This document shows, one piece after another, positions 1 through 25,494 of a stretch of DNA of 25,494 bases (its first letter is position 1; the number at the start of each line of letters is the position of its first letter). The translations under genes were made by a program, and so were the position numbers. A model generated the notes under the pieces. That model saw only the letters and a program-made list of their open reading frames with translations. It was not told the origin of the DNA and did not search any database. The DNA comes from a virus. Lineage: Duplodnaviria > Heunggongvirae > Uroviricota > Caudoviricetes. The DNA is taken from positions 1 to 25,494 of the IMG/VR virus record IMGVR_UViG_3300045988_104440; one strand, given 5' to 3'.

Positions 1-27
1 ACCAGGAACCACCTCCTTAGCCTGTGT

Positions 28-54
28 AATCTCCCTTACACGGGCTTATTTTTT
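28..54. other. att: P2-type phage attachment site core (27 bp); attP or a prophage att junction
   Basis: Reverse complement of 28..54 reads AAAAAATAAGCCCGTGTAAGGGAGATT, which matches the P2 att core as I remember it. It lies about 100 bp beyond the ogr stop, as in P2. Recalled from memory, not searched. Confidence 0.6.
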
Positions 55-5567: not shown

Positions 5568-6758
5568 TTAATTGCTATTAACCGAAGTGACCAGACTTGC
5601 CAGGTATCTGGAAGTAATACGCTGGCGCAGGGTCAGGTTTTCGAGAGGAGGCACCGGGGTATAGTCGTAGTCGATATACAGTTTTCCGGCCTTGAGGGTT
5701 TCCGCATCGTTGGATTCTTCGCTGAACCAGCAGGTCGCATCCACGATATAGCCGTTTGTTTTCAGCTCACGGAATTTGGCATTGATGCCGTCAACGATGT
5801 CGCGAATCAGCGTTGCGGTGATGGGCTTGTCCACCGCCCACATGTGCGCCTCAGCCATCGTATCGGCCAGCACCTGCGCGGTGCGGGTGTAGTTTTCAAA
5901 GAGGAACAGCGGGTCATCAGAGCAGGTACGGTTACCCCAGAAGCGGAAACCGTCACGGCGAATCAGCGTTGTGACACCTGACTCGTTCAACAGGTCAGCA
6001 TCGGTGCCGGACTCCTGCAAATCCCAGAATACAGATGCGCTGATGCCGGTAACACCGTTCACCCCGACATTGGACAGCGTTTTATGCCAGCCCTGCTCCT
6101 GGTCGATTTTAGCGCGCAGGCCCAGTGCACGGGCAGTGGCATACGCGGTGGCGGTGGTACTGGTGACCGTATCCCATGCGAGGAAATCCGGCCAGATGAC
6201 CATCAGCTCACGCTGGCTGAAATTCTGGCGGTAGGCTTTCACCTCGGAAATAGTCTTACATCCCCATGCGCTGATATACCCGAAAGCACGCAGCTTCTGA
6301 CAGACTGATGCCAGTGCAACAGCCACCTCTTTGGTATCCAGTCCCGGCACGCCGAGAATACGCGGTTTAACACCGGTTACCGACTCCGCCGCCAGCAGGG
6401 CTTTCAGTCCGGTGTACTGACCGTTTTCGTCGGTGGTGCCGATGATATTGGAAACGGTCTGCGCGAGTTTCGTTTCTTCGTCGTCGCCGGTGCCGTCTTC
6501 CACACGTACGACAACGGTGACCGGTTTTGACTGGTCGGCGATGGCCTGCAACGATGCCGCCAGCGTGCCTTTTTTACCAGCCTTTGCAATTGCGCTCTGC
6601 ACATTGGTAATCAGCACCGGTTTATTGAGGGGGAAGGTTTCCGCATCTGCATCGCTGGCCGTGCAGACCATGCCGACAATGGCCGTGGATACGGTGGAAA
6701 TGACGCGGGTGCCGTCGTTAATCTCCAGCACCTGCACGCCGTGATGATAGTCACTCAT
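5568..6758 (-). CDS. FI: Contractile tail sheath protein FI (396 aa)
   Basis: First gene of the FI-FII-E-T-U-D operon; length equals P2 gpFI. Confidence 0.85.
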   Translation of the reverse strand: MSDYHHGVQVLEINDGTRVISTVSTAIVGMVCTASDADAETFPLNKPVLITNVQSAIAKAGKKGTLAASLQAIADQSKPVTVVVRVEDGTGDDEETKLAQTVSNIIGTTDENGQYTGLKALLAAESVTGVKPRILGVPGLDTKEVAVALASVCQKLRAFGYISAWGCKTISEVKAYRQNFSQRELMVIWPDFLAWDTVTSTTATAYATARALGLRAKIDQEQGWHKTLSNVGVNGVTGISASVFWDLQESGTDADLLNESGVTTLIRRDGFRFWGNRTCSDDPLFLFENYTRTAQVLADTMAEAHMWAVDKPITATLIRDIVDGINAKFRELKTNGYIVDATCWFSEESNDAETLKAGKLYIDYDYTPVPPLENLTLRQRITSRYLASLVTSVNSN

Positions 6759-6881
6759 CCGTTTAACTCCGTGGTTAATGGGTGCAACTATTTTCTGTTG
6801 TGCAGAGCATGAGACGCTATTTGACCTGGCTGGTCAGGGGATGAAACAACAGATAAAGAAAATGCGGGCAATTCGCCCGCC

Positions 6882-6899: not shown

Positions 6900-7130
6900 C
6901 TCATTTTCCGACTGACTATTTAGATAGCCGAAACGCTATCAAATCTGACAGTCTGCTTTGAGCGAGGAGCGGAAGTTCGTAATTGTTCTCACCGTTAAGG
7001 GTCTAGTACTAACATTACCGTATGTTTATCAACGGGGACTACATCAGGCTAAATTCAGTGTGTCACAACCATTAACAAGATTTTCTGTAGCAATCGATAA
7101 CTACTTAAGTTAAAAATAGAAAACTAATCG

Positions 7131-7162
7131 TGTAGCTATAAATCGCTACAATAGACTCGGAG
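7131..7162 (+). promoter_or_regulatory. Candidate promoter/operator and ribosome-binding site for the cargo operon
   Basis: Perfect 6-bp inverted repeat TGTAGC (7131..7136) / GCTACA (7145..7150) flanking a TATAAAT -10-like element (7137..7143). GGAG (7159..7162) lies 6 nt before the ATG at 7169. Confidence 0.3.
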
Positions 7163-7168
7163 TTTGCA

Positions 7169-8395
7169 ATGTCAGATCAGCGTTTTATAAGTAAGATTCA
7201 GGATACTAGGGTTGATTGTTGGTCAGCTTTAGTTGAATTTAATGTTAAAGACTATCTTGGGCTTGCAGAAAAAGCTTACGTTAATAGAGGTGGTATACGA
7301 CATCAACGCGAAGCTCTTAAAACCACAACAGCGAAACGCATTCGCACTAGGCTCGTCGAGGACTTGAGGCGAGGCGCGGTAATCCCTCCTCTGGTCATTG
7401 GTATAGTCGCTGACAATGACGATTGGCAGACAATTGAAGGTATCTCAGAGTCCGAGCAAGTAAAGCAACTCCTTAAAAAATATTATGAAGAATTGTCGAT
7501 TATTGATGGGATGCAACGCACCACAGCTCTTAAAGAAGCATTAGCTTTAGATGAAAACGTAGCCGATCATGTGATTAGGGTAGAAGCCTGGATTGCGAAA
7601 GGCACAGAGAGTTTAATATATCGAATGCTTGTTTTAAACACTGGGCAGGTACCATGGAACCTGAAACAACAACTAGAGGTTGTTTATGCTCCACTTGTGA
7701 AAACTATTAGCCAAAAAGTCAACTTTCGTAGGCTTCTCTCTGCATCGGATAGACGATGGCAAGGAGGGGAGTTTAAAACATACTCGTTGATTGAGTCTTA
7801 TATAGCTTTTGGATTGCGTCGAACTGAGGTCGATACTCAAGAGAGTCTAGCCGATGAGTTTTCAAGGCTAGATATCGCAGAAGCGCTCACCAATAAAAAA
7901 TATGACCATTATTTTTATCGTGTCGTGCAAATGTTAGTTAATTTCGATATTGCGCTATCGATATATAATGAAGTGCAGAATATCGATATTGCAGACCCTT
8001 CTGAGGGTTCCGATAGTCTAGAGGTAGGAATAAAAGCCAGAAAATTAGTAAGAGGCCGAAATATTTTTGATACTCAAGCAGCGCGAGTTGGTTTTATCGT
8101 TGCTTGTGCAGTCAGCATCCTTGGCAGAGTTGGCATGGACAAGGAAGAAGAAGTCAGTGAAGAGAGATGTGCCTTACTAGAGGAATCTTGTGCTGCTCTT
8201 GTTAAAAGGATTACCGCCTTAAATAGAGAAAATTTAGAAGAATTTTTATCGCTAGATGTTTTAGCTGAAAAATTGTCCCGGAGACCGAGTTCAGCAGTTG
8301 GTAGATGGGAGCGGTCATTCTTTGAGGCTGCGTTCCGAGTATTAGTAGAAGAAAACTTTAATATACCCAACATGGAGCCATGCTGGCGGGCATAA
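7169..8395 (+). CDS. Hypothetical protein (408 aa), candidate ParB/DndB-like (DGQHR-type) protein; cargo gene 1
   Basis: Complete ORF with a GGAG ribosome-binding site. HQRE (aa 44-47) followed about 65 aa later by IIDGMQRTTAL (7504..7518 encodes DGMQR), resembling the QR...DGQ(Q/H)R signature of ParB/Srx-fold DndB/DUF262-like proteins. AT-rich, on the strand opposite to the late genes. Confidence 0.6.
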   Translation: MSDQRFISKIQDTRVDCWSALVEFNVKDYLGLAEKAYVNRGGIRHQREALKTTTAKRIRTRLVEDLRRGAVIPPLVIGIVADNDDWQTIEGISESEQVKQLLKKYYEELSIIDGMQRTTALKEALALDENVADHVIRVEAWIAKGTESLIYRMLVLNTGQVPWNLKQQLEVVYAPLVKTISQKVNFRRLLSASDRRWQGGEFKTYSLIESYIAFGLRRTEVDTQESLADEFSRLDIAEALTNKKYDHYFYRVVQMLVNFDIALSIYNEVQNIDIADPSEGSDSLEVGIKARKLVRGRNIFDTQAARVGFIVACAVSILGRVGMDKEEEVSEERCALLEESCAALVKRITALNRENLEEFLSLDVLAEKLSRRPSSAVGRWERSFFEAAFRVLVEENFNIPNMEPCWRA

Positions 8396-8396
8396 T

Positions 8397-9491
8397 ATGT
8401 CTAGAAATAAAATAGAAATGTCGACGGACATTTTTCAAAAAATACATGATTCTGCATCTGCTCAGGACTCTACGTACATAGCCGATAATGAAAAAAGATG
8501 GCTTGCTCGTAAAGATAACGAGGATTTAAACCTTATGATTAATGCAGAGGTTAACGTTCTTATTTTGGGGGCGAAGACGTTCGCCGTCTCTATTAAGAAT
8601 GGTTCTGATAACTACTTCTGTTTTAGCGGTTTAGATATCCCCGAACAACTTCCCGCCAGTCTCACTGAGATTGAGCCCACGCCTGGCATCTTTTCATGCG
8701 TTGTGTTCACCGTCAATCTCCCAGCATTAGCTACAGCGGCTAAGGCTAGAGACATTTTAGAACAGCAATACCTGGGGCAGGAAGGTTACGTCGGGCATGA
8801 ACTTAACGAGATCGCTCCACTCTTTCCAAAACTATACTTTGTTAAGGCTAACGAAAATATAAGCACTACTTTTTTAAATAATTTAGAGCGTGTAGCTGGT
8901 GCCTATATTGCTGCAGGATACGTTAGCCACCCTTTAGAGGTTAATGATAATTTAAAGTTGCGACTACTGTCTCTATTTGAAGTTGGAGCAGAAACCATAC
9001 CGTTTCGTCTACCTCTGCAGGGTCTATTATCTTATAATTGGTCATCGTTATTTTTGGATCTTTATCGATGCTTAGAGCAGTTATATACCGCGCAAAAGTT
9101 GAAAAATTTAGTCACTAAACTCCCATACAAAGGTACTTTGGCAGATCTCGCATATTTACTGGAAGATGAATTGTCATGGAGACCAAAAGAGCAGGATGCA
9201 TTAGCTAGTATACTGGCATGTTCAACTGAAAACACACGTTCGAAAATTCTATCTGCATTCAAACTCAACGTGCCCGAGTTAACCGAGTACTCGCCAAGCA
9301 AGTGCGCAAGTAATATATATAAGCTGAGGAATTCTCATGTTCATTTTCGCCCAGCAATGAAAGCAGAAAATAAACCCACCGAACAGTGGAATGAAATTTT
9401 GATAGCGATGTGTGATGCCGTTGATGACGTTTATGAAGCTCTCGGTGCTGAATTCTTAATAGATAGGTCAAACTTAGAGTCGGTCAGGTAA
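8397..9491 (+). CDS. Hypothetical protein (364 aa), unknown family; cargo gene 2
   Basis: Complete ORF starting 1 nt after the stop of cargo gene 1 (TAA-a-ATG), implying translational coupling. No motif I can assign confidently; a C-terminal R-x4-H (LRNSHVH, 9324..9344) is noted. Confidence 0.55.
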   Translation: MSRNKIEMSTDIFQKIHDSASAQDSTYIADNEKRWLARKDNEDLNLMINAEVNVLILGAKTFAVSIKNGSDNYFCFSGLDIPEQLPASLTEIEPTPGIFSCVVFTVNLPALATAAKARDILEQQYLGQEGYVGHELNEIAPLFPKLYFVKANENISTTFLNNLERVAGAYIAAGYVSHPLEVNDNLKLRLLSLFEVGAETIPFRLPLQGLLSYNWSSLFLDLYRCLEQLYTAQKLKNLVTKLPYKGTLADLAYLLEDELSWRPKEQDALASILACSTENTRSKILSAFKLNVPELTEYSPSKCASNIYKLRNSHVHFRPAMKAENKPTEQWNEILIAMCDAVDDVYEALGAEFLIDRSNLESVR

Positions 9492-9602
9492 TATGCATGA
9501 TTAAAATTGTCATGCGTAACCTAAGCTTATAATTTGTCTATCATATTCATCCTAGATAGATGACTCTATGCTCATCCCCCAGATGAATATATTACAAACC
9601 TT

Positions 9603-9625
9603 AAAAAGCCGTCCTTTAGGACGGC
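9603..9625 (-). terminator. Rho-independent terminator between the convergent cargo operon and gene G
   Basis: Hairpin GCCGTCC-ttta-GGACGGC (9608..9625) preceded on the plus strand by AAAAA (9603..9607), which is a U-tract for minus-strand transcripts. Only a weak T-run follows on the plus strand. Confidence 0.5.
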
Positions 9626-9924
9626 TGTAAACTCTATATTAAACTGGCTCTTACTTTTGCGAACACTGACTTCCACTTTTTATACAATGAAGGTCGAACA
9701 ATAAGAAAAAATCTCCGCTTATATTAACCAAAAGCATCTATTTGTTATCCACGTAATATCTTGCGCGATATAAACATACCAGCAGGTTTCTTAGCATTGA
9801 TCTGCTCCCCATTGATTAAAACAGCGTGATGTTTGCTATGTCCGTTCTTGGCACAGAGCGGACTGTCAAATTAGGCTTTACTCTGTGCCATAGATATGTA
9901 AGCTCCCACCAGAGCTCATACAAC

Positions 9925-10452
9925 TTATTGCGGCATTTCCGGCCATTCAGGATTTGTAGGATCCACACGACTGACCAGAACGCTGTAGCGTTCCCAAGCC
10001 TCCAGCCGTGTGCGCTCCTCCTCTGTTGCCATGTTCAGCCTGACAGCACGCTCTAGCGGCAAAATCACGGATTCAGCATCTGCAAGAAGTCTGGCTTTCC
10101 TGTTTTCTGCCTGCAGTTGCAATTCCTCTGCCGTATAAATTCGTTTGATCACTGTGCCATCCTTAAACATCCAGTTCCCTGAAATGTCCGCCCGTCGGTT
10201 AGCAGTAATATCCGCCACTTCAACAACACTTAATCCATCCGGTCTGATAGCTGTCACATCCTTTTCCACATAGCGGATGATATTATCTTTGTCGTACGCT
10301 ATTTTTATCGTGTCATCAGCAAAATACTTTTGTTCTTCGTACCAGTTCTTACCATCTTCTGAAAAAAACCAGACAACATCAAAATTCTTTGTCAATTGAT
10401 ATTGTTCAACCGTTTTTGGATTACCCGCCGTAATATTTTTTAAATGCTGCAT
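9925..10452 (-). CDS. G: Tail fibre assembly protein G (175 aa)
   Basis: ORF directly downstream of H with a 3-nt gap; length equals P2 gpG. Confidence 0.75.
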
Positions 10453-14496: not shown

Positions 14497-15128
14497 AGAG
14501 GACTCCCGGTTGTGCCGCCGCTGTCGCCGGGGTGTTTATGGGTATGCAGTACCTTACCGTTTGATGAGAGTTCACCGCCGGTATGTTTAATGTTGCCGCG
14601 CATCGTCCCGCCCTTCTGCACTTCCAGCGTGCCGGTAATCAGTCTGTTGGTGCAGACCACCTCCGGGGTGTCCAGGGTGATGCGGGTTGACGCTTTCACC
14701 GTGACTACCGGTACCGTGGCAGTAACAGAATCAGAAGCCGTCACGCTGGCCGTTTTAATTCCGCTTACCGTGAGTGCACTGGTTTCGGGTTCATACTCAA
14801 TCACCGCCCCGTCAGGGAAACGGATATGCAGGGCATCCGCCGACGCAGACGGCGCGGGGTTATCGCCGGAATAAATCCCCGGCAGAACAAACGCCGTGTC
14901 AAGTTCACCGCCCACGGCCAGAATCAGCACCTGCTCCCCCACGGAAGGTGCCCACCATGTGCGCGAACGCCCGGCACGACAGGTCAGCCACTGAAGCCAG
15001 TCGGTGCACATGCCGCCGGTCTGCACACGGCAGCGACCGGCGTTAAGGTCGGTTTCGACGACAAGGCCGGTGCGAATCATGTTGCGCAGTGCGCGCGCGA
15101 GTTCCTGAATATTTGCGAGAGTGTTCAT
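14493..15128 (-). CDS. V: Baseplate spike/hub protein V (211 aa)
   Basis: First gene of the V-W-J-I-H-G operon; length equals P2 gpV. Confidence 0.8.
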   Translation of the reverse strand: MNTLANIQELARALRNMIRTGLVVETDLNAGRCRVQTGGMCTDWLQWLTCRAGRSRTWWAPSVGEQVLILAVGGELDTAFVLPGIYSGDNPAPSASADALHIRFPDGAVIEYEPETSALTVSGIKTASVTASDSVTATVPVVTVKASTRITLDTPEVVCTNRLITGTLEVQKGGTMRGNIKHTGGELSSNGKVLHTHKHPGDSGGTTGSPL

Positions 15129-15194
15129 AACGGGAAGGATGCCGCCGGGTCATACCGGCGGCAATGTGACGATGAGGTGTCGGGAATGGCACAA

Positions 15195-15647
15195 CTAACG
15201 GTCGAGGTGCGCCAGAATAATCTCTTCAATCATCTGCACATCCTCACCGGTAAAGCCGAGCAGGGGACGCGCCGGATAATCAATTTTCTTACCGTCTTTC
15301 CGGGTTTCTTCCGACAGACCGAACTGATGCACACTGGCGATTTTCGGCGACTTCCCGCCGTAAAATTCCATTGATGCCTGTTCCGGGCTGGCGCGGATAT
15401 GCAAAAAACGACTGGTGATAAGTTTCGCAAACATTTTTCGCTTAACACGACCAGTCTTTTTTCTGGCGCTCTGCTGCTGGCGTGGCGCGTAGGGTGTGCC
15501 GTCCGGGGCTTTCTGAGCCATCACCCGACGCTGCTGACTCTGCCGCAGACGTTTCGCCAGTTCGGCGCTCAGTCGCCGACGCCCTGACGGTGACAGCGAT
15601 TCAGTCAGTCCGGTCAGCCGGTCTTCAAAACGCTTAAACTCATTCAT
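15195..15647 (-). CDS. S: Tail completion protein S (150 aa)
   Basis: Position after R with an 8-nt overlap; length equals P2 gpS. Confidence 0.8.
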   Translation of the reverse strand: MNEFKRFEDRLTGLTESLSPSGRRRLSAELAKRLRQSQQRRVMAQKAPDGTPYAPRQQQSARKKTGRVKRKMFAKLITSRFLHIRASPEQASMEFYGGKSPKIASVHQFGLSEETRKDGKKIDYPARPLLGFTGEDVQMIEEIILAHLDR

Positions 15648-21567: not shown

Positions 21568-23340
21568 ATGACCATCACCACAGACACCACTCTTTTGCAC
21601 GACCCGCGTCGTCAGGCGGCGCTGCTGTACTGGCAGGGGTTTTCCGTGCCGCAGATTGCCGCCATGTTGCAGATGAAACGCCCGACGGTGCAGAGCTGGA
21701 AACAGCGCGACGGCTGGGACAGCGTTGCCCCCATCAGCCGTGTCGAAATGAGTCTGGAAGCGCGGCTGACCCAGCTCATTATCAAACCGCAGAAAACCGG
21801 CGGTGACTTCAAGGAAATTGACCTGCTCGGACGCCAGATTGAACGACTGGCACGGGTAAACCGCTACAGCCAGACCGGCAACGAGGCAGACCTTAATCCG
21901 AACGTCGCTAACCGCAACAAAGGCGGGCGTCGCAAACCGAAAAAGAATTTTTTCAGCGACGAGGCTATCGAAAAGCTGGAGCAGATTTTCTTTGAGCAGT
22001 CTTTCGACTATCAGTTGCACTGGTATCGCGCCGGGCTTGAGCACCGCATCCGCGATATCCTGAAATCCCGCCAGATTGGCGCGACGTTTTATTTTTCCCG
22101 CGAGGCGCTGCTGCGCGCCCTGAAAACAGGTCATAACCAGATTTTTCTGTCGGCCAGTAAAACGCAGGCGTATGTGTTCCGCGAATACATCATCGCCTTT
22201 GCCCGTCTGGTTGACGTTGACCTGACCGGTGACCCGATTGTCCTGGGCAATAACGGCGCAAAACTGATTTTTCTCGGCACCAACTCCAACACCGCGCAGA
22301 GCCATAACGGCGACCTGTACGTCGACGAGATTTTCTGGATCCCGAATTTTCAGGTGCTGCGTAAGGTGGCATCAGGTATGGCCTCACAGAGTCACCTGCG
22401 ATCGACCTATTTCTCCACCCCGTCCACGCTGGCGCACGACGCCTACCCGTTCTGGTCGGGTGAACTGTTCAACCGGGGACGCGCCAGCGCCGCCGAACGC
22501 GTGGAAATCGACGTCAGTCATAACGCCCTTGCCGGTGGGCTTCTCTGTGCGGACGGCCAGTGGCGGCAGATTGTCACCATTGAGGACGCCCTGAAAGGCG
22601 GCTGCACGCTGTTCGACATTGAGCAGCTCAAACGCGAAAACAGCGCCGACGATTTTAAAAACCTGTTCATGTGTGAATTTGTTGACGACAAGGCATCGGT
22701 GTTCCCGTTCGAGGAGCTGCAACGCTGCATGGTCGACACGCTGGAAGAATGGGAAGACTATGCCCCCTTTGCCGCCAATCCGTTCGGCTCCCGCCCGGTA
22801 TGGATTGGTTACGACCCGTCACACCGTGGCGACAGCGCCGGATGCGTGGTGCTGGCACCGCCGGTGGTGGCCGGTGGCAAATTCAGGATCCTTGAGCGTC
22901 ACCAGTGGAAAGGTATGGACTTTGCCACTCAGGCGGAATCCATCCGCAAACTCACTGAAAAATACAACGTCGAATACATCGGTATTGATGCCACCGGCCT
23001 CGGTGTCGGCGTGTTCCAGCTCGTGCGCTCGTTCTATCCCGCCGCGCGCGATATCCGCTACACGCCGGAAATGAAAACCGCAATGGTGCTCAAGGCAAAA
23101 GACGTTATCCGCCGTGGCTGTCTGGAATATGACGTCAGCGCCACCGACATCACCAGCTCGTTTATGGCTATCCGCAAGACCATGACCAGCAGCGGACGCA
23201 GCGCCACCTATGAGGCCAGCCGCAGCGAGGAAGCCAGCCACGCCGACCTCGCCTGGGCGACCATGCACGCCCTGTTAAATGAGCCACTCACCGCCGGTAT
23301 CAGCACTCCGCTGACATCCACCATTCTGGAGTTTTACTGA
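21568..23340 (+). CDS. P: Terminase large (ATPase) subunit P (590 aa)
   Basis: The 600-aa ORF trimmed to the Met starting MTITTDTT, which has GAGG 5 nt upstream, gives 590 aa, equal to P2 gpP. Divergent from O and followed by Q. Confidence 0.85.
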   Translation: MTITTDTTLLHDPRRQAALLYWQGFSVPQIAAMLQMKRPTVQSWKQRDGWDSVAPISRVEMSLEARLTQLIIKPQKTGGDFKEIDLLGRQIERLARVNRYSQTGNEADLNPNVANRNKGGRRKPKKNFFSDEAIEKLEQIFFEQSFDYQLHWYRAGLEHRIRDILKSRQIGATFYFSREALLRALKTGHNQIFLSASKTQAYVFREYIIAFARLVDVDLTGDPIVLGNNGAKLIFLGTNSNTAQSHNGDLYVDEIFWIPNFQVLRKVASGMASQSHLRSTYFSTPSTLAHDAYPFWSGELFNRGRASAAERVEIDVSHNALAGGLLCADGQWRQIVTIEDALKGGCTLFDIEQLKRENSADDFKNLFMCEFVDDKASVFPFEELQRCMVDTLEEWEDYAPFAANPFGSRPVWIGYDPSHRGDSAGCVVLAPPVVAGGKFRILERHQWKGMDFATQAESIRKLTEKYNVEYIGIDATGLGVGVFQLVRSFYPAARDIRYTPEMKTAMVLKAKDVIRRGCLEYDVSATDITSSFMAIRKTMTSSGRSATYEASRSEEASHADLAWATMHALLNEPLTAGISTPLTSTILEFY

Positions 23341-24374
23341 TGAGCAAGAAAAAAGGGAAAACACCGCGACCAGCGGCAAAAACAATGACCGCCAGCGCCC
23401 CGAAAATGGAGGCATTCACCTTTGGTGAGCCGGTGCCGGTACTCGATCGCCGTGACATTCTGGATTACGTCGAGTGCATCAGTAACGGCAGATGGTATGA
23501 GCCACCGGTCAGCTTTACCGGTCTGGCAAAAAGCCTGCGTGCTGCCGTGCATCACAGCTCCCCGATTTACGTCAAACGTAATATTCTGGCCTCGACATTT
23601 ATCCCGCATCCGTGGCTTTCCCAGCAGGATTTCAGCCGCTTTGTGCTGGATTTTCTGGTGTTCGGTAATGCGTTTCTGGAAAAGCGTTACAGCACCACCG
23701 GTAAGGTCATCAGACTGGAAACCTCACCGGCAAAATATACCCGCCGTGGTGTGGAAGAAGATATTTACTGGTGGGTGCCGTCCTTCAACGAGCCAACACC
23801 TTTCACGCCCGGCTCCGTGTTTCACCTGCTGGAGCCGGATATCAATCAGGAGCTGTACGGCCTGCCGGAATATCTCAGCGCCCTTAACTCTGCCTGGCTG
23901 AATGAATCAGCCACGCTGTTCCGCCGCAAGTATTACGAAAACGGCGCACATGCCGGATACATCATGTACGTCACCGATGCCGTGCAGGATCGCAACGATA
24001 TCGAAATGCTCCGCGAAAACATGGTGAAGTCGAAAGGCCGCAACAACTTTAAAAACCTGTTTCTCTATGCCCCACAGGGGAAAGCCGACGGCATTAAAAT
24101 TATCCCGCTCAGTGAAGTGGCAACGAAGGACGATTTTTTTAATATCAAAAAAGCCAGCGCCGCTGACCTGCTGGACGCGCACCGCATCCCCTTTCAGTTG
24201 ATGGGCGGCAAGCCGGAGAACGTCGGGTCGCTGGGCGATATTGAGAAAGTGGCAAAGGTCTTTGTCCGCAATGAGCTTATCCCGCTACAGGACAGGATCC
24301 GCGAGATAAACGGCTGGCTCGGCCAGGAAGTCATCCGCTTTAAAAACTACTCACTGGACACTGACAACGGCTGA
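23340..24374 (+). CDS. Q: Portal protein Q (344 aa)
   Basis: Its start overlaps the P stop (TGATG); length equals P2 gpQ. It is the last gene before cos. Confidence 0.85.
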   Translation: MSKKKGKTPRPAAKTMTASAPKMEAFTFGEPVPVLDRRDILDYVECISNGRWYEPPVSFTGLAKSLRAAVHHSSPIYVKRNILASTFIPHPWLSQQDFSRFVLDFLVFGNAFLEKRYSTTGKVIRLETSPAKYTRRGVEEDIYWWVPSFNEPTPFTPGSVFHLLEPDINQELYGLPEYLSALNSAWLNESATLFRRKYYENGAHAGYIMYVTDAVQDRNDIEMLRENMVKSKGRNNFKNLFLYAPQGKADGIKIIPLSEVATKDDFFNIKKASAADLLDAHRIPFQLMGGKPENVGSLGDIEKVAKVFVRNELIPLQDRIREINGWLGQEVIRFKNYSLDTDNG

Positions 24375-24563: not shown

Positions 24564-24893
24564 CGCCCGCTTCATGGGGCGGTTTTAATGCAGTTGCATG
24601 AGTACGTTGAATCCTCGCTAGCTGTGACGTAAAGCAATGAGGACGCATAACTTTGACACATGCAAAACCATGCACCTGATACATTCATAGTTATTACTTT
24701 GTAAAAACATAAAAAAAGGAAATCCCATGAACAAAAATCAAACTATTAATAAAAATTTTTATATCTCTTAGAACAAAAGATTTTGCTTGAACAAAGTAAA
24801 CTTCTGAGGTAGATCTTTATCGTTTAGCAAAATAATTCATGTTAAACAGCTTAAATATTTATACCATATCATTGGCAGTGATGAGGTTTTAAA

Positions 24894-25494
24894 ATGGAAC
24901 TTAAATTAAAGGATATAACCAGCTATAAGAAAGATAGCTTCACAACTCTTAATCTCTCAAAAAAAATCAATATACTTTATGGTCACAACGGTTGTGGAAA
25001 ATCAACCATATCTAATTATTTCTATAATCCAAATAACACGGACTACAAAGAATGCGAATGTCCTTTCATAGATACTTTTCGCCTATTGGTTTATAATACT
25101 AAGTTTATTGAGGATAATTTTTATAATGCAAAAGAGCAAAAAGGAGTATTCACTTTAAGTAAGGAAAATGCTGACATTGAAAAAGAATTATTGGAAAAAG
25201 AAGCTATAAGACAAGACCTACTTACAAAATACAAAGATAAAAAAAACGTTATTGAGCGTTTAATTAACGATAAAAACAATAAAGAAAATGAATATATTGA
25301 TTTAATATGGAATAAAGCAGAACCTTTTAGATCATCTGACTTAAAGAACTTGATGAAAGGTCAGTTAGGAAGCAAGAGATCATTTTATGAGCAAGTTAAA
25401 AAAGCCCCTCAAACCACTGACGTTAACATCGAGTCACTTGCTCAAGAATATAGTATTCTTTTAAAGAATAAAGATAAATTCACTGCAGATCGGA
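24894..25494 (+). CDS. P-loop ATPase (ABC/SMC-like), 5' part only; runs off the window
   Basis: ATG at 24894 with GAGG 6 nt upstream and an open frame to the window edge (200 codons). Walker A motif GHNGCGKST (24981..25007) is followed by a long charged, coiled-coil-like region. AT-rich. This ORF is not in the supplied track because it has no stop inside the window. Confidence 0.55.
   Translation, partial: MELKLKDITSYKKDSFTTLNLSKKINILYGHNGCGKSTISNYFYNPNNTDYKECECPFIDTFRLLVYNTKFIEDNFYNAKEQKGVFTLSKENADIEKELLEKEAIRQDLLTKYKDKKNVIERLINDKNNKENEYIDLIWNKAEPFRSSDLKNLMKGQLGSKRSFYEQVKKAPQTTDVNIESLAQEYSILLKNKDKFTADR

Follow-up and report, generated by a model that had tools for sequence, protein, structure and literature searches.

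A P2-like prophage, represented by IMG/VR record IMGVR_UViG_3300045988_104440 (25,494 nucleotides (nt), positions 1 to 25,494, the whole stretch being called the window here), carries two adjacent genes, A and B, between its tail genes FI and G, and we concluded from sequence comparison that this A-B pair is a divergent relative of the Dazbog defence system, probably missed by standard thresholds. The pair is probably a prophage-borne two-gene anti-phage module of a divergent Dazbog subfamily, in which A would sense phage DNA and B would cut RNA, resulting in abortive infection. The two genes are:

7169-8395, plus strand: gene A, DzbA-like, 408 amino acids (aa), with an N-terminal ParB/DUF262-type domain and a helical C-terminal half
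8397-9491, plus strand: gene B, DzbB-like, 364 aa, with an alpha/beta N-terminal domain (about residues 1-180) and an Apea-like HEPN domain (about residues 185-355)

Profile searches of A against the PADLOC models revealed a match to DzbA at E 2.8e-50, in which residues 6-407 aligned with positions 4-383 of the 393-position model; A also matched PHROG family 27603 (function unknown) at 2.4e-122. Among Pfam/NCBIfam families, GmrSD_N/DUF262 was matched at 1.8e-4 (22.1 bits, under its 33.2 cut-off), DndB at 2e-3 (17.7 bits, under 29.1) and DGQHR, likewise sub-threshold, at 0.03. An alignment of 38 A homologues down to 50% identity gave a mean column identity of 63% and revealed an invariant block, I111-I-D-G-M-Q-R-T-T-A120, corresponding to the DGxQR motif of the ParB/DUF262 fold. 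In ParB-fold proteins this motif touches the nucleotide at its beta and gamma phosphates (PMC12065111), and the GmrSD-like protein HEC-06 requires it for defence (bioRxiv 10.1101/2024.01.29.577857). The C-terminal half of A is helical and conserved, with invariant, mostly charged residues at E209, R217, Q224, E225, D235, D260, D301 and R306 and further ones at R379, E381, R382, E386, W406 and R407. Neither domain searches nor the family consensus revealed a nuclease or other toxic domain in A, DUF1524 being absent, and the PDB, searched by sequence with A, B and three family profiles, yielded no relative.

For B, profile matches across the family showed that the C-terminal part is homologous to DzbB, the window protein itself staying under normal calling thresholds. 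Window B aligned weakly with the PADLOC DzbB model (E 1.2e-3, residues 219-318 on model positions 208-307 of 341). The same model was matched by 34 of 35 B homologues (best 7.5e-8) and by 34 of 46 more distant ones (best 5.2e-12), always collinearly and at about positions 185-329 of 341; the N-terminal two thirds of B lie outside the match. The C-terminal family consensus reached 27.4 bits on PF18739 (HEPN_Apea; cut-off 24.4 bits) with an E of 5e-6, covering model positions 1-121 of 136, and matched HEPN_RiboL-PSP, MAE_28990, Cthe2314 and DZIP3 below their cut-offs. HEPN_Apea was also matched individually by 11 of the 46 distant members (best 7e-4), and the family gave weak matches to Cas13a HEPN models.

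R-N-x3-H is the signature of HEPN ribonucleases (RNases), and a HEPN protein is recognized by Rx4-6H with a polar residue after the arginine. B carries the motif Y308-x2-R311-N-x3-H316-x-R318, which reads R311-N312-S-H-V-H316 in the window protein; R311 and H316 never vary, and N312 rarely if at all, across the 35- and 46-sequence alignments, which reach down to 20% identity. Also invariant are Y223-R224-x2-E227 and W261-R-P-x-E265, with K264 only nearly so, in a family whose mean column identity is 46%. An AlphaFold2 model of B (mean predicted local distance difference test score, pLDDT, 89.8; predicted template modelling score, pTM, 0.87) has an alpha/beta N-terminal domain followed by a C-terminal domain made up of helices only, one of which carries the motif at its C-terminal end. 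RnlA has its HEPN motif at the same helix-end position, and its R255/E258 pair is mirrored by R224/E227 of B. Sequence profiles and motifs, rather than structure, give good support for the HEPN assignment. No paper in the searchable literature describes DzbB as a HEPN protein; such a statement may exist in work inaccessible to us, and the assignment for a DzbB-type protein may be a useful new lead.

Dazbog, a published two-gene defence system (Millman et al. 2022; Stokar-Avihail et al. 2022), has DUF262 in the product of its first gene and behaves as an abortive infection system (bioRxiv 10.1101/2022.08.27.505566; review PMC10952713). It turns toxic upon expression of a phage cytosine methylase, and phages that escape it lose methylation (bioRxiv 10.1101/2022.08.27.505566; PMC10952713); protection by abortive infection and the methylation trigger are known only for the B. 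mycoides system. The pair described here shares with Dazbog its two-gene operon, the order A then B and similar protein sizes: A, of about 400 aa, is DUF262-type and matches DzbA over its full length, and B, of about 350 aa, matches DzbB collinearly over its C-terminal third. The pair also lies on mobile elements and in defence islands, as Dazbog does. It differs in its scores, as six A-type proteins (that of the window and five from distant phyla) score no more than 141-199 bits against DzbA, and none of the five B-type proteins tested exceeds 41 bits against DzbB; window B would probably fail the usual calling thresholds. The simplest reading of the clade, based on these uniformly modest scores and not on a tree, is a subfamily sister to the sequences from which the DzbA and DzbB models were built. 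A first-pass annotation, made by a model from the DNA letters and their translations, had proposed a candidate undescribed system and had found no likeness to a defence system that it could name with confidence. The PADLOC profile search does not support the first point, since A is a full-length DzbA homologue and the B family consistently matches DzbB.

To this homology is added a strict linkage of the two genes. A profile search with B returned 798 clusters at 50% identity, and of the 34 genomes that encode a B relative in a scan of one genome per species, 30 have an A relative directly before it on the same strand; the four exceptions lie at a contig end or are degraded. The pair extends over alpha-, beta- and gamma-proteobacteria, cyanobacteria, Flavobacteriia, Paenibacillus, Ignavibacteria and Desulfobacterales, and A and B, obligately adjacent, form one unit. 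The exact B protein occurs in 68 blocks of the collection, with the same P2 FI-G layout in all eight places shown. The pair is mobile, and its other settings include:

Klebsiella variicola: a lambdoid prophage
Pseudomonas mosselii: beside a pilin gene and IS66
Cereibacter: a prophage/restriction-modification island
Citrobacter portucalensis: among housekeeping genes

Between the window and these copies, A retains more identity than B (91% vs 77% in Klebsiella, 75% vs 47% in Pseudomonas and 68% vs 40% in Cereibacter), and the N-terminal domain is the fastest-diverging part of B.

Guided by these likenesses, we propose the following course of events. By analogy with GmrSD, BrxU, SspE and Dazbog, the ParB/DUF262 fold of A would recognize incoming phage DNA, possibly modified, and nucleotide binding or hydrolysis at its DGxQR motif would serve as the switch. 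Activated A would then turn on B, whose HEPN domain, with its intact R-N-x3-H motif, would cleave cellular RNA, as ApeA cleaves tRNA, and growth would be arrested before the invading phage completes its cycle, that is, by abortive infection. In GmrSD, BrxU and SspE, DUF262 senses modified DNA and nucleoside triphosphate hydrolysis licenses the nuclease domain (PMC10952713, PMC12065111). The A-B pair shares with them a ParB-fold DUF262 with a DG(Q/x)QR nucleotide-binding motif and differs in having no DUF1524/HNH deoxyribonuclease (DNase), its putative nuclease being a separate HEPN protein. The C-terminal domain of B, in turn, resembles ApeA, RnlA/LsoA, AbiV, Tha and HEC-08, which are single-protein HEPN defences with R-N-x3-H and act via RNA cleavage and abortive infection; in ApeA and RnlA, as in B, the HEPN domain follows a non-catalytic N-terminal domain. 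The HEPN family that B matches has ApeA as its type member, and ApeA defends through cleavage of tRNA anticodon loops.

Several observations weigh against this division of labour. Window B on its own matches no Pfam family, including any HEPN model, and matches DzbB at just E 1.2e-3; no promoter was identified for the operon; and A is far more conserved than B (63% vs 46%), though a sensor usually evolves faster. In addition, Millman et al. report that the dzbB deletion was not obtained or transformed, 'possibly due to toxicity', and list it beside deletions of known antitoxins; DzbA would therefore be harmful alone, which fits poorly with a harmless sensor and a toxic effector.

Some of these observations suit a reversal of roles within the same family. 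A would then be the harmful component, for instance through uncontrolled DNA binding or clamping, or through nucleotide consumption by its ParB-fold domain and conserved C-terminal half, and B would restrain it, sensing phage via its variable N-terminal domain, with the HEPN domain being regulatory or providing a second activity. This arrangement stays alive because of the dzbB remark, the unusual conservation of A, whose many invariant C-terminal charged residues would suit an enzyme with a universal substrate, and the speed at which B evolves, two to three times faster than A and fastest of all in its N-terminal domain. Set against it are the lack of any recognizable nuclease or toxic domain, DUF1524 included, in A and the full invariance of the HEPN motif of B over very large distances, which argues for a catalytic role; moreover, the toxicity remark is tentative and concerns canonical Dazbog rather than the present subfamily. 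We regard the reversal as unlikely, if worth keeping in mind, and continue to favour A as sensor and B as RNase.

The possible toxicity of deleting one Dazbog gene could also point to a toxin-antitoxin addiction module that stabilizes the cassette or the prophage and gives no protection against other phages. HEPN proteins are common toxins in toxin-antitoxin pairs (PMC13000451), A and B are tightly coupled, and the pair is found on mobile elements. Both proteins (408 and 364 aa) are, however, large and multi-domain, unlike typical antitoxins; homologous Dazbog gives measurable phage defence; and the Citrobacter copy lies among ordinary chromosomal genes, with no element to stabilize. Addiction as the main function therefore seems improbable to us.

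The sub-threshold matches of A bear on a further explanation, in which A would be a type IV modification-dependent restriction enzyme, or a DndB/ParB-like prophage regulator or partition factor, and B an accessory protein without RNase activity. The family matches behind it all fall below their cut-offs, as opposed to E 2.8e-50 for DzbA, neither A nor B contains DUF1524/HNH, and no dnd or ssp genes lie nearby; the explanation is largely refuted by domain content, and we give it very little credence. Since the pair is also found in unrelated phages and away from phages altogether, it is not a P2 maintenance function. Among individual candidates, a GmrSD-type enzyme was rejected for the absence of DUF1524 from A, B and the family consensus sequences, and a Dnd or Ssp system for the sub-threshold DndB match and for neighbours that are P2 tail genes; no dnd or ssp gene was found in the other contexts of the pair that we inspected. 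Menshen (NsnABC) and PD-T4-2 likewise have a DUF262 protein without DUF1524, but Menshen is a three-gene system that includes an ABC ATPase and a PIN/BECR-type effector, and neither A nor B matched the PADLOC models of these systems at E of 1 or better.

The surroundings of the pair support its being real, self-contained accessory prophage cargo and not a virion component. The window covers the late region of the prophage, read on the minus strand, and all long open reading frames (ORFs) flanking the pair lie on the minus strand and, by the Pfam labels of an identical contig, are P2 tail genes, the wider gene order being:

left of the cassette, minus strand: Ogr, D, U, T, E/E', FII (tube) and FI (sheath, 5568-6758)
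right of the cassette, minus strand: G (tail-fibre assembly, 9925-10452), H, I, J, W, V, S, R, lysis genes and capsid genes

Two long plus-strand ORFs, A and B, lie between FI and G. They are joined by TAA(8393-8395)-T-ATG(8397-8399), so that stop and start are 1 nt apart; a GGAG at 7159-7162 stands 6 nt 5' of the A start, and alignments with dozens of homologues are consistent with both N-termini. GC content falls to 0.40-0.43 over 7001-10000, compared with 0.52-0.58 leftward and 0.54-0.60 farther right. The first-pass annotation was thus accurate on the coordinates and opposite orientation of the two ORFs, on their 1-nt spacing and on the AT-rich character of the insert, the length of which it put at 2.3 kb; the foreign segment spans about 2.9 kb (6951-9863).

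It had also described the FI-G junction as a hypervariable accessory locus and the two genes as cargo rather than a virion component, a description borne out by comparison of the interval across prophages, in which the A-B pair proved to be one among many alternative inserts. In 1,049 of 5,426 complete E. coli genomes only flanks of about 300 nt match, with other cargo inside, and in 70 phage records, likewise, only short FI-G flanks match around other genes. The alternative cargo includes FRG-domain, RES, HNH and hypothetical proteins and, in P2 itself, fun. Vassallo et al. 2022 (PMC9519451) describe the fun locus as a second defence-enriched hotspot in P2-like phages, and Rousset et al. 2022 studied the other P2 hotspot, between the P2 genes A and Q. 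Searches with the cassette DNA and proteins against the 5,426 E. coli genomes and 50,697 phage records matched only the P2 flanks. The prophage host is probably not E. coli, because the cassette was not found in these complete genomes; Citrobacter portucalensis is the closest species representative.

The ends of the foreign segment are marked by short repeats:

6951-6973, no strand assigned: left boundary, hairpin-like repeat core GTCTGCTTTGAGCGAGGAGCGGA, P2-like leftward and Citrobacter-like rightward; read at the junction as GTCTGCT..GAGCGAGGAGC
9841-9863, no strand assigned: right boundary, repeat core TCCGTTCTTGGCACAGAGCGGAC, Citrobacter-like leftward and P2-like rightward; read at the junction as TCCGTTCTTGGCAC.GAGC

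The right core is an imperfect inverted copy of the left one. Local alignment of 6942-6973 with the reverse complement of 9841-9872 gave 25 matches of 32 and a score of 29, compared with 15.4 +/- 2.6 in shuffles (maximum 28), and each core, judged by eye, is also able to form a small hairpin of its own. The left core falls on the feature that AJ512682 (the P2-EC53 Z region) labels 'right inverted repeat', and the right core on the inner end of its 'left inverted repeat' (about 9840-9952 in the window); going by this GenBank annotation, the flanking repeats had been described before. P2 fun(Z), P2-EC30/53/58 and the PD systems of Vassallo et al. occupy the same FI-G slot and have the same inverted repeat cores; their cargo is unrelated, and in P2 fun lies on the tail-gene strand, whereas the A-B operon lies on the opposite one. 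The left core precedes fun in P2 and, in three copies, other cassettes in the Citrobacter locus L016, and the right core also follows the cassette in Citrobacter and Enterobacter.

Outside phages, Citrobacter portucalensis A60 has the whole GC-poor cassette (6951-9859) at 95.6% identity, with housekeeping genes as neighbours and no P2 tail genes within 6 kb. In the chromosomes of Citrobacter portucalensis and Enterobacter cancerogenus the cores part several small cassettes, often in the arrangement right-type core, 16-18-nt spacer, left-type core. The core sites in two such loci are:

L016: 3181-3203, 3633-3655, 4511-4574 and 7445-7467
L017: 4520-4542, 7399-7461, 7938-7990 and 8931-8953

These sequence patterns suggest cassette exchange at specific hairpin sites, common to the P2 fun slot and to chromosomal cassette arrays, by an integron-like or repetitive extragenic palindrome (REP)-like mechanism that would feed the P2 fun hotspot.

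Within the cassette, the following non-coding elements accompany the genes:

6974-7168, plus strand: upstream non-coding region carried with the module, presumably the promoter and 5' untranslated region
7131-7150, plus strand: palindrome TGTAGC-N8-GCTACA, directly 5' of the A ribosome-binding site
9607-9626, A5 on the plus side and T5 on the minus side: GC-rich hairpin with an 8-bp stem and a UUUA loop

The genes are accompanied by about 190 nt of sequence upstream of A in the Klebsiella variicola lambdoid prophage, which matches 6976-9471 at 84% identity over the whole stretch, and the same region lies inside the 95.6% match to the Citrobacter chromosome. The palindrome, which could be an operator or an RNA element, is partly kept in the Klebsiella copy; its fold alone is not significant (z = -1.6). 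The hairpin at 9607-9626 has a folding energy of -15.1 kcal/mol (z = -4.5; none of 200 shuffles was equally stable) and is kept in the Klebsiella copy with a T:A to T:G change, the stretch between B and the hairpin not being conserved there. Its T-run on the minus strand, with an A-run before it on the plus strand, gives it the look of a two-way insulator, and it is probably a two-way terminator or insulator between convergent units rather than a classical plus-strand terminator. The movement of the upstream region and hairpin with the genes into an unrelated Klebsiella prophage suggests indirectly that the module brings along its own expression signals, and it would presumably be expressed in the lysogen. 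Rfam searches returned nothing inside the cassette.

On these signals the first-pass annotation was partly right. The terminator that it placed behind the operon is a real hairpin but, since the T-run is on the minus strand, does not look like a classical plus-strand terminator. The candidate promoter that it assigned to the operon was not recovered: a consensus promoter scan gave no plus-strand sigma-70-like site upstream of A, and promoter-like sites were no commoner in the region than in shuffles (7 vs 8.1). Between the cassette and the start of FI, within sequence shared with P2, lies a further element:

6864-6880, minus strand: strong terminator-like hairpin GCGGGC-GAATT-GCCCGC followed by a T-run

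This hairpin probably keeps transcription leaving the variable slot from reading through into the FI operon promoter.

Elsewhere in the prophage, a partial ORF on the plus strand (24885-25493; GC 0.36) runs off the right window end beyond the portal gene Q (23340-24374). It contains the Walker A motif GHNGCGKST and matches the N-terminus of PADLOC PDC-S06, a candidate defence protein, at E 5.9e-57; cargo is thus present at the other P2 hotspot of this prophage as well, in the old/tin position. At the opposite end, beside Ogr, positions 1-51 (plus strand) match the 3' part of the CyaR/RyeE small RNA in Rfam (66.8 bits, cut by the edge), which probably makes the left window end the junction of prophage and host at the cyaR locus. 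Some near-identical prophages that carry A and B have a 251-aa ORF without Pfam match between V (spike) and S (tail completion) (14810-15565, minus strand, in L004 and L007). This ORF is absent from the window, and the V-S interval may be a third small variable slot.

Taken further, the pair might represent a distinct DUF262-HEPN system beyond a diverged Dazbog, in which a ParB-fold nucleotide switch would read phage DNA and govern an RNase in trans, the fast-evolving N-terminal domain of B sets phage specificity, and hairpin-repeat cassette exchange, shared with the Citrobacter and Enterobacter arrays, delivers the cassette to the P2 fun slot. We put this forward tentatively, as a possibility that we doubt more than we believe; if true, such a system would be the RNA-targeting counterpart of the DUF262-DUF1524 DNases.

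For Dazbog, defence has been shown and the mechanism is unsolved; of its parts only the DUF262 of DzbA has been discussed, and our PDB searches found no solved structure. The presence of the same 2.9-kb cassette, with its repeats, in a phage hotspot and at a plain chromosomal locus is direct evidence on how such a hotspot is loaded. The subfamily is widespread, with 798 B clusters at 50% identity, and lies just under the detection thresholds of standard defence-finder models; defence censuses of P2-like prophages may therefore under-count Dazbog. If the HEPN assignment is right, the A-B pair would link DNA sensing by a ParB fold to an RNase output.

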